Shown in pieces: positions 20,984 through 23,900 of a stretch of 64,000 nucleotides of DNA (positions within the stretch are counted from its first letter, which is position 1; the number at the start of each line of letters is the position of its first letter). The DNA lies in contig MFUZ01000006.1 in NCBI GenBank assembly GCA_001785865.1, positions 242,315 through 306,314 on the forward strand. Reading direction: 5' to 3'. The notes below the pieces were generated by a model, which worked only from the letters and a program-made list of their open reading frames with translations, was not told where the DNA came from and did not search any database. This DNA comes from Candidatus Nomurabacteria bacterium RIFCSPLOWO2_01_FULL_41_18. GTDB taxonomy: Bacteria > Patescibacteriota > Minisyncoccia > Phycocordibacterales > UBA9973. Position numbers and translations under genes: made by a program.

Positions 20984-23900
20984 TTAAAGAGCAGGTTCAG
21001 CTCCGACGTTGTCAGTCGGAGTTCCGACCTCTGGATCTGCCGGAGCTTCGGGAGTGGTTGGATCAAGTGTCGGAGGATCTTCTGGCTCTACTACCACTGG
21101 ATCCACTATAACTTCGGACTCCCCCTCGCCTTCACCAGGAGAGGGTTGGGGTGAGGTTGGTTCCGGTTCTGGCTCTGGCTCTGGTTCTGGCTCTGGCTCT
21201 GGTGCCTGTTCAGGTAGAGGGGTAGATTCAGGTTCAGGAGTTGGGTCTTCAGCCGAAGGCTGATCAGCCTCTGGCTGAGGCGTAGGGTCCGGTTCTGGAG
21301 AATGTGTAGGAGAAACATTTTGATTTTCTAACAAGGCTTTCAAAGATTGCAACTCTGCGCGATTCAAACACACCGCTTCCTCCCCTGGCTCCGTCAAACA
21401 AACCTCGCCCGTAAAGATGCGAGCGATACGATTCTCCACATTCGCAAACCAAGCAACCAAGCTATCCCTCCAGCTATTTTCTTTTTCAAAATTATTTAAC
21501 TCTTCAAAATCTTTAATTTTCAACCCCAAATCGTCAATTTTGGCGTTTGTAGCCTGAATTCCGAGCACCATATAACCCAGAGTGTTGACAGGGTTCACAA
21601 CAGTGCCTCCATAATGCATTGCCCAAGGGGCTTCATCGGCCATCACACCGACGTATTCGGTCAGAGTGTCCCCCGTGCCCTTGCCTTCTTTGTAATGGAA
21701 GCGGTAAATTGGAGTTCCGAGAATTTGAGTCAAGATTTCATTTGGATCAGTGACTGTGCCTAGGATGTTTTTTTGATCACGAGAGCTGGCAGCCGCCGCC
21801 CAAGTCAAAACTCCATCGCCGGCAACATCCGTAAGTTGAGTTCCGCCCGCGCCGACGGCTGGAGGCAAGGAATAAGTGATGTCCGCGTCTTGCGCCACCG
21901 CTTGGAAAGCGGAATAGTTGGTTCCTGAAGCGGAAGGCTCCAAGAAACGCAAGCCGGTGGCAGTGGTTCCACCTCCGATGTTTATAAGATTTCCGCTAGG
22001 GATCAGAGTTAGACCGCCAGCGCTAGTGGTCAACAAGTCGGCGTAATTCGCGGCCGAACCATCCGCATCATTGTAAGTTAGACGAAGATTTACCCCGGTG
22101 GCAGAGTTAATATCTAAAACTCTGCCGGGAACCGTCGTACCGATCCCGACGTTGCCTCCGATTGGGTTTAATAATAGAGGATATGTTAGTGCAAGGTTAC
22201 TAGAATTAGTGGATTGCAACCACCCTCCTGCTCCACCGTTTTGTCCAATATCCAATACACCCGTGTTGGCCGTATTGCCGATTCTTGCCACACCAGTTTG
22301 AGAACTACCACTTGAGGCTGGTAGACTGTTTGAACCAGAGACTTCAAATTTCTGAGTTGGCCCCGCCGTCGTCCCTATGCCCACATAACCAGAATTGAGG
22401 ATCGTCATCCTCTCCGTCAAAACCGAAGGCGCAGCGTTGGTGCCAGTCCAGAAAGATAATTGTCCAGGGACTCGGCTGTCAGCAATAGTGCCAGAGGAGA
22501 TGCCTTTGATGGCGGCGCCTGTGATGTAACCAGCGGCTCCGCCATAACCTGTGAAGTTGATGACTCCGAGTTCATCGGCGGTGGTGATGACCGTCGGACT
22601 GGCTCCAGTGCCTCTGGCTTTCCTGAAATTCACATCAAAGCTGTCAGCGGAAGCGTTGGCTTGAGTGAGATAGGTCTTTCCCAAATCAACTGTGTCGGAG
22701 GAAACATGCAGTAATCCTGCTGGTACCGTCGTCCCAATGCCGACGTTGCCGGAAGAATCTATCCTGAGCTTCTCAGTATTATTAGTACCTAAACTGATAA
22801 AACTATTTTCTCTGTTCCAAATATAGGCGCCACTATCACTCCAAGATTGAATGACGAGCCCGTCTGTTGCAGCGTCGCCGACATTTGTATTTGTTAAATG
22901 AATTTCTGAAGTAGCAGCTCCACCAATATGTAATAATCTAGCCGCAGAGACAGTCGCCGGACTAGAAATACCGATGCCGACGTTGCCCGAGCTATCTATA
23001 ACGACCCTCTGAGCTATACTATTAGTGCCAAACTCCATCCTGTTATCAGCCGCATTGTAAAGAACTCTTCCTCCATAATCAGGTGTTCCATAACCAGTAT
23101 CGTTCGTTGATGATGGAGTAAAATCAACCCACATACTACTTGCACCGTGGCTTCTTAGTTCAATACCACTATAATTATTAGTCCCTGTTCCACTATTTAC
23201 AATTTTAAGCATTGGCGAGTTAGCCACGGTGTCATTTTTTTCAATATGTAATAAACTAAGTGGCTCCGTCGTCCCGATGCCGACATAGCCACCGTTTGGT
23301 TGTAATGCCAAGGGTAGCGTTGTTTCTGCACTGTCAGCATAGCCAGATTGAATCCATCCATAATATAATCCATCGACATTTTCATTATTATAGGTTCCCA
23401 TATTCAACGCAGGACCTCCGCCACCATCATTCTCAAAAATAATTCCCGTATCCATTGAACCAGTTGCAGCTGGTATTCCACCGGCGCCAACAATATGCAA
23501 GACGCTCTGGGGCAGTACCGTCCCGATGCCGACCCTTTGGGAACTATCTATTGTAATTGCGGCGATATTAGCAGTAAAAAAAGTTAAAGGGACACTAGCG
23601 TTCATCCCCAAAAACCCTTCTGAATTTACTCCAGAAAATTCATTATAAGTTGAACCGCTGATTCCAAAACGCATAACATCATCAACGTCGTTCGCAATAT
23701 TCACATAAGATTCATACGAGCCATCAGTCCCGTATAATCCATTAAAATACGCTACTGGATTATTAGTTGCAACTCCTGTATCACTAGAAATATGAAGCGG
23801 ATACCCCGGCGCCGCCGCCCCGATGCCGACGTTGCCGGTGCTAACCTGCTGGTACATATTACCAAAAGTAAATAAATCATTATCACTTACCCCCAAACCC

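Follow-up and report, generated by a model that had tools for sequence, protein, structure and literature searches.

A predicted surface fibre with an S74-type chaperone domain of divergent subtype in a Candidatus Nomurabacteria genome

The 64-kb stretch of Candidatus Nomurabacteria DNA analysed here (hereafter the window) encodes, on its reverse strand, a 1425-residue tail-fibre-like protein in which a repetitive shaft is followed by a homologue of the peptidase S74 (intramolecular chaperone) domain and by a conserved extension of 175 residues. We suggest that this protein is a Sec-exported, homotrimeric surface fibre of the Nomurabacteria cell, that its S74 domain templates folding and then cuts the chain before Ser1159, and that adhesion is the most likely role of the mature fibre; to this reading as a whole we assign a probability of about 0.65. 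Fibres of this general kind are known from Bdellovibrio bacteriovorus, where 21 mosaic adhesive trimer (MAT) fibres, 13 of them ending in S74, are displayed at the surface (Caulton et al. 2024, PMC10769870).

Results

The fibre shaft

Ten repeats of the type G-N/Y-V-G-I-G-T-x-x-P-x-x-x-L-H-V start at residues 202, 297, 394, 476, 576, 658, 759, 838, 958 and 1036 of the protein, with spacings of 78–120 residues. Nine of them obey the strict pattern G-x-[VILF]-G-[IVL]-[GSN]; in a six-frame translation of the window all nine matches fall within the fibre reading frame, and the pattern occurs elsewhere just once, at an unrelated site. The remaining copy, at residue 576, reads RVGIGTVLPQSVLHIV. The repeat pattern is real and not a product of chance. 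When searched against the PDB with phmmer, shaft residues 822–1097 match the Bdellovibrio MAT fibre Bd2133 (8ond; E 2.7e-8, 276 residues aligned), and two further MAT chains are matched by the shaft as well (8ojn, E 1.3e-5; 8ol4, E 2.3e-4). PHROG tail-fibre families likewise match the shaft, with phrog_9942 reaching E 2.8e-36, and NCBIfam holds no match for the fibre protein.

A search with the whole protein retrieved 907 large homologues at E<=1e-10, about half of which carry a precomputed PF13884 (Peptidase_S74) assignment. Those that are named come nearly all from the Candidate Phyla Radiation (CPR), that is, from Nomurabacteria, Paceibacterota, Absconditabacteria, Dojkabacteria, Doudnabacteria and Collierbacteria, with one labelled Margulisbacteria, and bear the names ‘tail fiber domain-containing protein’ or ‘hemagglutinin family protein’. 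This kind of protein is already present in public annotation, though it is uncharacterised. Two homologues, P0036 and P0038, stop at, or a few residues from, the cleavage site predicted below, which suggests that the shaft is complete at this point.

By inspection, the N-terminus has the build of a Sec signal peptide, in which a hydrophobic core of 15 residues follows a basic n-region and V-F-A precedes V31, and a scan of the whole protein found this to be its sole hydrophobic segment. The six cysteines of the protein form three local pairs (47/54, 244/265 and 1288/1298), as fits an extracellular protein. Homologues of the N-terminal region, sought with residues 31–204 (nt 24650–25171), are mostly unnamed fragments, some of them with precomputed PF18454 or PF26696.

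A divergent S74 domain

Profile comparisons identify residues 1159–1250 as a true homologue of S74; its subtype is divergent and marked by an EAPWAMH motif. Since the direct Pfam match is sub-threshold, homology had to be shown at the profile level. Residues 1100–1320 retrieved 38 homologues, and 30 of these, trimmed to the S74 domain, constitute the subfamily alignment; PF13884 is matched at E<0.01 by 21 of the 30. The best PDB matches of the subfamily profile are all S74 proteins, namely the T5 L-shaped tail fibre (8hqz, E 0.0093), MyRF (7dc3, E 0.013), the tail fibre 8jov (E 0.044) and phi29 gp12 (3gud), and Ser and Lys are aligned with those of 8hqz and 8jov. Moreover, seven S74 domains of canonical type were taken from related fibre proteins (all PF13884-positive, best E 8.4e-20), and hhalign pairs their profile with that of the subfamily at a probability of 97.7% (E 1.4e-12, 85 columns); the Ser and Lys positions of the two coincide. 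The AlphaFold model of residues 1140–1251 (mean confidence score, pLDDT, 78) comprises a small α/β part and a long terminal helix, and its top Foldseek matches are the MyRF ICA domain, phi29 gp12 and the endoNF chaperone; the scores are weak, as one would expect when a domain that forms an intertwined trimer is modelled as a single chain. This subtype falls below the Pfam cut-off and is missed by NCBIfam, which is of relevance to annotation.

Only three columns of the 30-sequence alignment are invariant: Ser1159, Lys1164 and one Gly. Both members of the dyad are also invariant in a second alignment of 16 further sequences that covers two S74 subtypes. They lie in the sequence S1159-S-R-D-Q-K1164-N-I, the S-x4-K spacing of which is also that of T5 pb1 (PMC4690869) and which fits the SDxxxK motif of Bdellovibrio Bd3182, a protein that cuts itself at the S74 Ser and whose cleavage is blocked in an S-to-A mutant (PMC10769870). 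In T5 pb1, the Ser1264/Lys1269 dyad cuts the Thr1263-Ser1264 bond, and cleavage further requires neighbouring-chain Arg and Asp residues just upstream of the cut, Arg1250 and Asp1239 (PMC4690869). The nearly invariant Arg1161 (position +2) might act here as a stand-in for T5 Arg1250.

An earlier note on this DNA had proposed an S74 domain at the C-terminus of a 1425-residue tail-fibre-like protein with at least nine GNVGIGT-type repeats upstream. The protein (open reading frame 20984..25261, reverse strand) and the repeats were correctly recognised. The four peptide strings that the note singled out correspond to residues 1158–1170, 1183–1197, 1203–1219 and 1228–1249 (nt 21515–21790), and the span it gave, 21320–21810, to residues 1151–1314. 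Its identification of S74 is borne out by profile comparison, though not by a direct Pfam hit, and the Ser-Lys pair that it expected is present; the assignment would have been given up had profile matches and catalytic residues both been absent, and neither is. What has to be corrected is the position of the domain, which is internal to the polypeptide.

A conserved extension after S74

Beyond the S74 domain the window protein continues with a short linker, a two-cysteine module and an acidic tail of 115 residues (29% Pro, 20% Glu, net charge -31), so that 267 residues in total lie beyond the predicted scissile bond. The module (residues 1262–1310) has no Pfam family and no PDB relative. In an exhaustive profile search, 2,321 cluster representatives matched it at E<=1e-3, 960 of them at E<=1e-10. 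Of 61 long representatives, 50 carry S74 immediately before the module (median gap 16 residues) and 53 have fibre repeats; downstream of the module there follows a median of 89 residues, of which 76% are Pro, Glu, Thr, Ser, Asp, Ala or Gly. An AlphaFold model of residues 1114–1316 built with 16 homologues (pLDDT 43.6, too low for a fold search) gives a weak hint of a helix, a β-hairpin with both cysteines and a second helix.

Both S74 subtypes carry the module. Homologue P0033, for example, shares 77% identity with the window protein in the module and only about 24% in S74, its S74 domain being of the canonical SDERLK/GLIAQDVE-type; this mosaicism indicates recombination at the border between the S74 domain and the module. 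Separately, a second post-S74 variant, ‘TGITLYDEVTGDPYC…G.C’, was seen in the extensions of L003, L005, L007, L011 and L013 and in P0053, P0089 and P0101 (L and P numbers refer to loci and protein homologues, respectively). Of these loci, L011 belongs to a Saccharibacteria MAG (metagenome-assembled genome). In L003, L005, L013 and P0101 this ‘TGITLYDEVTGDPYC’ variant is followed by a PPxITLNG…VDT..GTY repeat resembling a DUF5011-type immunoglobulin (Ig) domain, with a Pro/Glu/Thr-rich tail next in most of them; PF16403 is precomputed on three homologues, P0101 among them.

Phage versions and cellular versions

S74 domains of the EAPWAMH type are found in 14 genome loci, 11 of which are labelled as CPR/Patescibacteria metagenome-assembled genomes (MAGs), and also in 20 IMG/VR loci, with 33–67% identity; in the three viral loci checked, major-head-protein genes lie just upstream. 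The two sets differ in what follows the domain: 0–23 residues in 18 full-length viral homologues versus 158–403 in the CPR loci. In 17 further fibre homologues whose matched stretch spans S74, 116–262 residues follow.

Pattern-limited scans of 2.9 million viral contigs with two sub-alignments of the post-S74 module found zero and one loci, respectively. The single locus, L037 (nt 347–4198 of IMG/VR contig 3300010938_000095), encodes a 1283-residue fibre, which has fibre repeats, an S74 domain of the canonical kind and a hydrophobic leader at its N-terminus. Instead of a virion gene, the locus may be cellular DNA or a copy borne by a CPR prophage. The ‘ALSDTDWDTFNDK’ motif of the N-terminal region of the window protein recurs in it as CLQSADWSNFNNK and CLSATDWSTFNSK.

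One Nomurabacteria MAG, RIFCSPLOWO2_01_FULL_42_17, contains three fibre genes (L004, L006 and L008, encoding at least 848, 1042 and 1376 residues) with the same S74 subtype and module. They form a paralogue family reminiscent of the 21 Bdellovibrio MATs.

Table 1. Parts of the fibre gene and adjacent genes, in window positions
Feature	Position (nt)	Strand	Basis or remarks
Fibre gene, complete (1425 aa, TAA stop codon)	20984..25261	-	Open reading frame list, re-translated coordinates; gene also called on JGI contigs
Predicted Sec signal peptide, residues 1-30	25172..25261	-	Sequence inspection; predicted cleavage after A30
N-terminal region, residues 31-200, with Cys47/Cys54 pair and ‘ALSDTDWDTFNDK’ motif	24662..25171	-	Cys positions, homologue search
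Fibre shaft, residues 201-1100, ten repeats	21962..24661	-	Motif scans, PDB phmmer, PHROG families
Last shaft module ahead of the cleavage site, residues 1101-1158 (…LRFLEPSASGTNYSAF…TQLTDVAGDGVLTWAAAA)	21788..21961	-	Conserved in cellular and viral homologues; would form the C-terminal tip of the mature fibre
S74/intramolecular chaperone domain homologue, residues 1159-1250	21512..21787	-	
Ser1159 codon, predicted nucleophile; predicted scissile bond Ala1158-Ser1159	21785..21787	-	Invariant column (S20 in 30-sequence, S46 in 16-sequence alignment); aligned with Ser of T5 pb1 and of tail fibre 8jov
Lys1164 codon, predicted general base	21770..21772	-	Invariant column (K25 in 30-sequence, K51 in 16-sequence alignment)
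Post-S74 module, residues 1262-1310, NSWRDSLVAWFANVENRIARIFTGEVCLTEPGEEAVCLNRAELQSLKAL	21332..21478	-	Invariant Asn1277, Cys1288, Cys1298 and Leu1304 in two alignments
Acidic Pro/Glu-rich low-complexity tail, residues 1311-1425	20987..21331	-	Composition; equivalent tails in CPR homologues
93-aa protein	25264-25545	-	Stops 2 nt ahead of fibre start codon
123-aa protein, N-terminal hydrophobic stretch	25552-25923	-	Upstream of fibre
657-aa protein, upstream of fibre	25989-27962	-	G-W-I-N-F/L repeats, hydrophobic stretches at both ends
Hydrophobic 684-aa protein, apparently polytopic, TPR repeats at its C-terminus	18861-20915	-	Directly downstream of fibre, 2 nt from murJ

Genomic neighbourhood

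The fibre gene is a cellular gene. Its neighbours match exactly those on a 313.5-kb contig of Candidatus Nomurabacteria bacterium RIFCSPHIGHO2_01_FULL_42_15 (flanking locus tags A2738_00770 and A2738_00790), and the window further encodes a class I aminoacyl-tRNA synthetase, PPDK, enolase, LepA, an ABC transporter, MurJ, LeuRS, YchF, DnaE and HisRS. Pfam scans of the immediate neighbours and of 20 further open reading frames of the window detected no phage gene; all those annotated are housekeeping or envelope genes, which places the fibre gene outside any phage structural module. The earlier note had described the gene as part of a cellular cluster with another surface protein, and other envelope proteins are indeed found in the cluster, in which the fibre gene is tightly packed with its neighbours (Table 1).

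The 684-residue protein downstream was considered as an O-antigen-ligase-type enzyme, an assignment that we dropped, as Pfam recognises TPR repeats only and, with the threshold relaxed to E<=10, still no Wzy_C in the membrane portion. In three further CPR MAGs (L005, with 56% identity, L007 and L012) its homologues adjoin fibre genes, and homologues of the 657-residue protein do so in L005 and L007. The latter protein has a sub-threshold match to a carboxypeptidase-regulatory-like domain (28.7 bits versus 32.3) and no PHROG or NCBIfam match. For the 93-residue protein there are only weak matches, to DUF7562 and several coiled-coil-type families, and no homologues of either this or the 123-residue protein were found beside fibre genes at other loci at E<1e-5. 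Promoter and terminator scans gave nothing informative.

The lepA gene (reverse strand) contains an in-frame, GC-rich insert of 25 residues (HLTPNPSPGRRGGSFSPQEKAGDEV; 14861–14935) in the GTPase domain. Some 40 nt of it recur, almost unchanged, in the stretch 21110–21157 of the acidic fibre tail (ACCTCACCCC.AACCC.TCTCCTGG.GAAGGCGAGGGGG). The shared sequence has palindromic parts (CCCCTC…GAGGGG) and possibly represents a short repeat element capable of in-frame insertion. LepA has another unusual insert (RLPRSGNGRGEGASV) further on, at 14669–14713. A 619-residue LepA cluster representative was at first suspected to lack the 25-residue insert; it differs only by a shorter start call and is 100% identical.

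Discussion

Proposed maturation of the fibre and alternatives

In the maturation pathway that we favour, the signal peptide would direct export of the chain, and the S74 domain would align three chains and nucleate folding of the intertwined ten-repeat shaft. Once the correct trimer has formed, Ser1159, activated by Lys1164, would cut the Ala1158-Ser1159 bond, yielding a mature fibre of about 1,128 residues that ends in …GVLTWAAAA and a released pro-fragment of 267 residues, consisting of S74, the two-cysteine module and the acidic Pro/Glu tail. Templating and cleavage are proposed because of the homology with T5 pb1, endoNF and Bd3182, and the mature fibre would then most likely act as an adhesin; by analogy, a role in host-cell attachment is plausible. 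What the sequences establish is the homology of shaft and S74 domain, the conserved dyad, the cellular setting and the conserved post-S74 extension; trimer formation, cleavage, display at the surface, adhesion and what becomes of the extension are predictions.

Several observations weigh against this proposal. (i) PF13884 itself scores only 13.4 bits with the whole protein and 17.4–18.4 bits with the isolated domain, at a gathering score of 22 bits, and phmmer finds no PDB match for the isolated domain. (ii) No Arg is conserved upstream of Ser in the 30-sequence alignment, the nearest in the window protein being R1105, 54 residues away; since the upstream Arg/Asp of the T5 type are not conserved here, catalytic competence is not assured. 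(iii) With 267 residues past Ser, the part to be released is much longer than the usual 110–150, and a long conserved region, joined in some homologues by an Ig-type repeat, is unexpected in a pro-peptide that is to be discarded. (iv) No anchoring feature (LPXTG motif, lipobox or second hydrophobic segment) was identified in the fibre protein.

The second and third of these points lend themselves to a different explanation, in which the S74-like domain serves trimerisation and registration only, cleavage being absent or partial, and in which the module and the acidic tail stay in place as a functional distal or envelope-interacting end. Conservation of the post-S74 region across 2,321 cluster representatives, its constant position right after S74, the extra Ig-type-looking repeat and the missing equivalent of T5 Arg1250 would all be accommodated. 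However, it is difficult to see why Ser and Lys should be invariant in all homologues examined if they had no catalytic role, the chains of P0036 and P0038 stop at or near the predicted cut with a seemingly complete shaft, and every experimentally tested S74 domain cleaves (PMC10769870, PMC4690869), so that we consider a non-cleaving fibre unlikely, even though it is the strongest competitor of a self-cleaving one.

Less probable still is a release switch akin to that of MyRF, in which the module and the acidic tail would hold the pro-fibre at the envelope until S74 cleavage frees a trimer that is shed or secreted instead of being displayed. As in MyRF, whose ICA domain is a top match in both sequence and fold, S74 is internal to the chain. 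The fibre protein moreover has a signal peptide of cleavable appearance and shows no other anchor. Yet this idea is speculative: neither a transmembrane segment nor a known wall-binding motif follows S74, and Bdellovibrio MAT fibres with the same shaft are displayed at the surface via their N-terminal part (PMC10769870).

Two remaining alternatives are effectively excluded. A tail-fibre gene of a phage or prophage, or a remnant of one, within the bacterial contig might account for the PHROG matches and for the presence of the same S74 subtype, at 40–61% identity, in fibre genes adjoining major-head-protein genes on viral contigs; against this stand the Sec signal peptide, the lack of phage genes among the scanned reading frames of the window, where LeuRS, MurJ, LepA, ABC transporter, DnaE and enolase genes are found nearby, the envelope-gene linkage conserved in other CPR MAGs, and the length of the region after S74 (116–403 residues in the window protein and its CPR homologues versus 0–23 in viral ones). 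That the similarity to S74 is due to chance or composition, and the segment merely more fibre, would agree with the sub-threshold Pfam score and the weak fold-search scores, but is contradicted by a profile–profile E value of 1.4e-12 and an invariant S-x4-K pair.

Implications for CPR bacteria

How the ultrasmall CPR/Patescibacteria recognise and hold their host cells is largely unknown, and published work on host recognition mainly names type IV pili and unnamed adhesins (PMC12206443, PMC10633639); we found no literature on S74 or tail-fibre-type proteins in these bacteria. The locus described here supplies candidate host-binding proteins: the Nomurabacteria genome, along with hundreds of homologues, the named ones being nearly all from CPR bacteria, carries S74-chaperoned fibres of the class to which the prey adhesins of Bdellovibrio belong. 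While an S74-capped, tail-fibre-like cellular adhesin is by itself a known kind of protein (the Bdellovibrio MATs, 2024), (i) the divergent S74 subtype below the Pfam cut-off, (ii) the cassette of module and acidic tail that separates cellular from phage versions, and (iii) the abundance of such fibres in Patescibacteria appear to be undescribed. The post-S74 module is a marker of the cellular variant; at least 2,321 protein clusters contain it, and it merits definition as a family.

The idea that these fibres attach episymbionts to their hosts, which the earlier note had also raised, is attractive and rests on analogy only. Going further, it is tempting to speculate, though we regard this as doubtful, that S74, the two-cysteine module and the acidic tail jointly constitute a Patescibacteria-specific elaboration of the phage chaperone that makes maturation a controlled step (the tip being, e.g., held or masked at the envelope until cleavage), and that multi-copy mosaic fibres might be host-recognition organelles of CPR episymbionts, as the MATs are for Bdellovibrio.

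Comparison with known systems

The domain shares with the phage chaperones of MEROPS family S74/PF13884 (K1F endosialidase, 3GW6; T5 pb1, 4UW8/8HQZ; phi29 gp12, 3GUD) its place right after a trimeric (here predicted) fibre, the Ser-x4-Lys pair and a predicted α/β region followed by a long C-terminal helix; they are among its best matches in sequence and fold, and close relatives of the EAPWAMH subtype are located in true phage structural modules. The phage chaperone, however, ends its polypeptide, whereas the S74 domain of the window protein is internal, and the gene is chromosomal, cellular and equipped with a signal peptide. The suggestion that the fibre is a domesticated phage module thus holds in so far as its S74 subtype is shared with real phage fibre genes; the architecture as a whole matches instead the cellular fibre class of Bdellovibrio (PMC10769870).

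An internal S74 domain is also found in the ICA domain of eukaryotic MyRF (7DC3), a membrane-tethered transcription factor. There, a transmembrane helix comes after the ICA domain, whereas no hydrophobic segment follows S74 in the window protein, the N-terminal part of which is a fibre and not a DNA-binding domain.

Differences from the Bdellovibrio MATs concern the host, which is a CPR bacterium and not a Gram-negative predator, the divergent S74 subtype (SSRDQK plus EAPWAMH, below the Pfam cut-off) and, relative to Bd3182, the two-cysteine module and acidic Pro/Glu tail after S74, with 267 residues past Ser as opposed to about 140. MATs are defined by a conserved β-rich domain of about 130 residues that comes directly behind the signal peptide; the search with residues 31–204 of the window protein returned no Bdellovibrio-labelled protein. 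In other respects the likeness is close: as in the MAT S74 subgroup (e.g., Bd3182), the protein is cellular, bears a signal peptide and exceeds roughly 1,000 residues; its GNxGIGT…P…LHV shaft repeats, homologous to those of Bd2133, 8ojn and 8ol4, members of a family with trimeric β-helical shafts and capping-loop repeats, lead into a closing S74 domain with Ser-x4-Lys; and domains are swapped in mosaic fashion, with several paralogues per genome in a related MAG.

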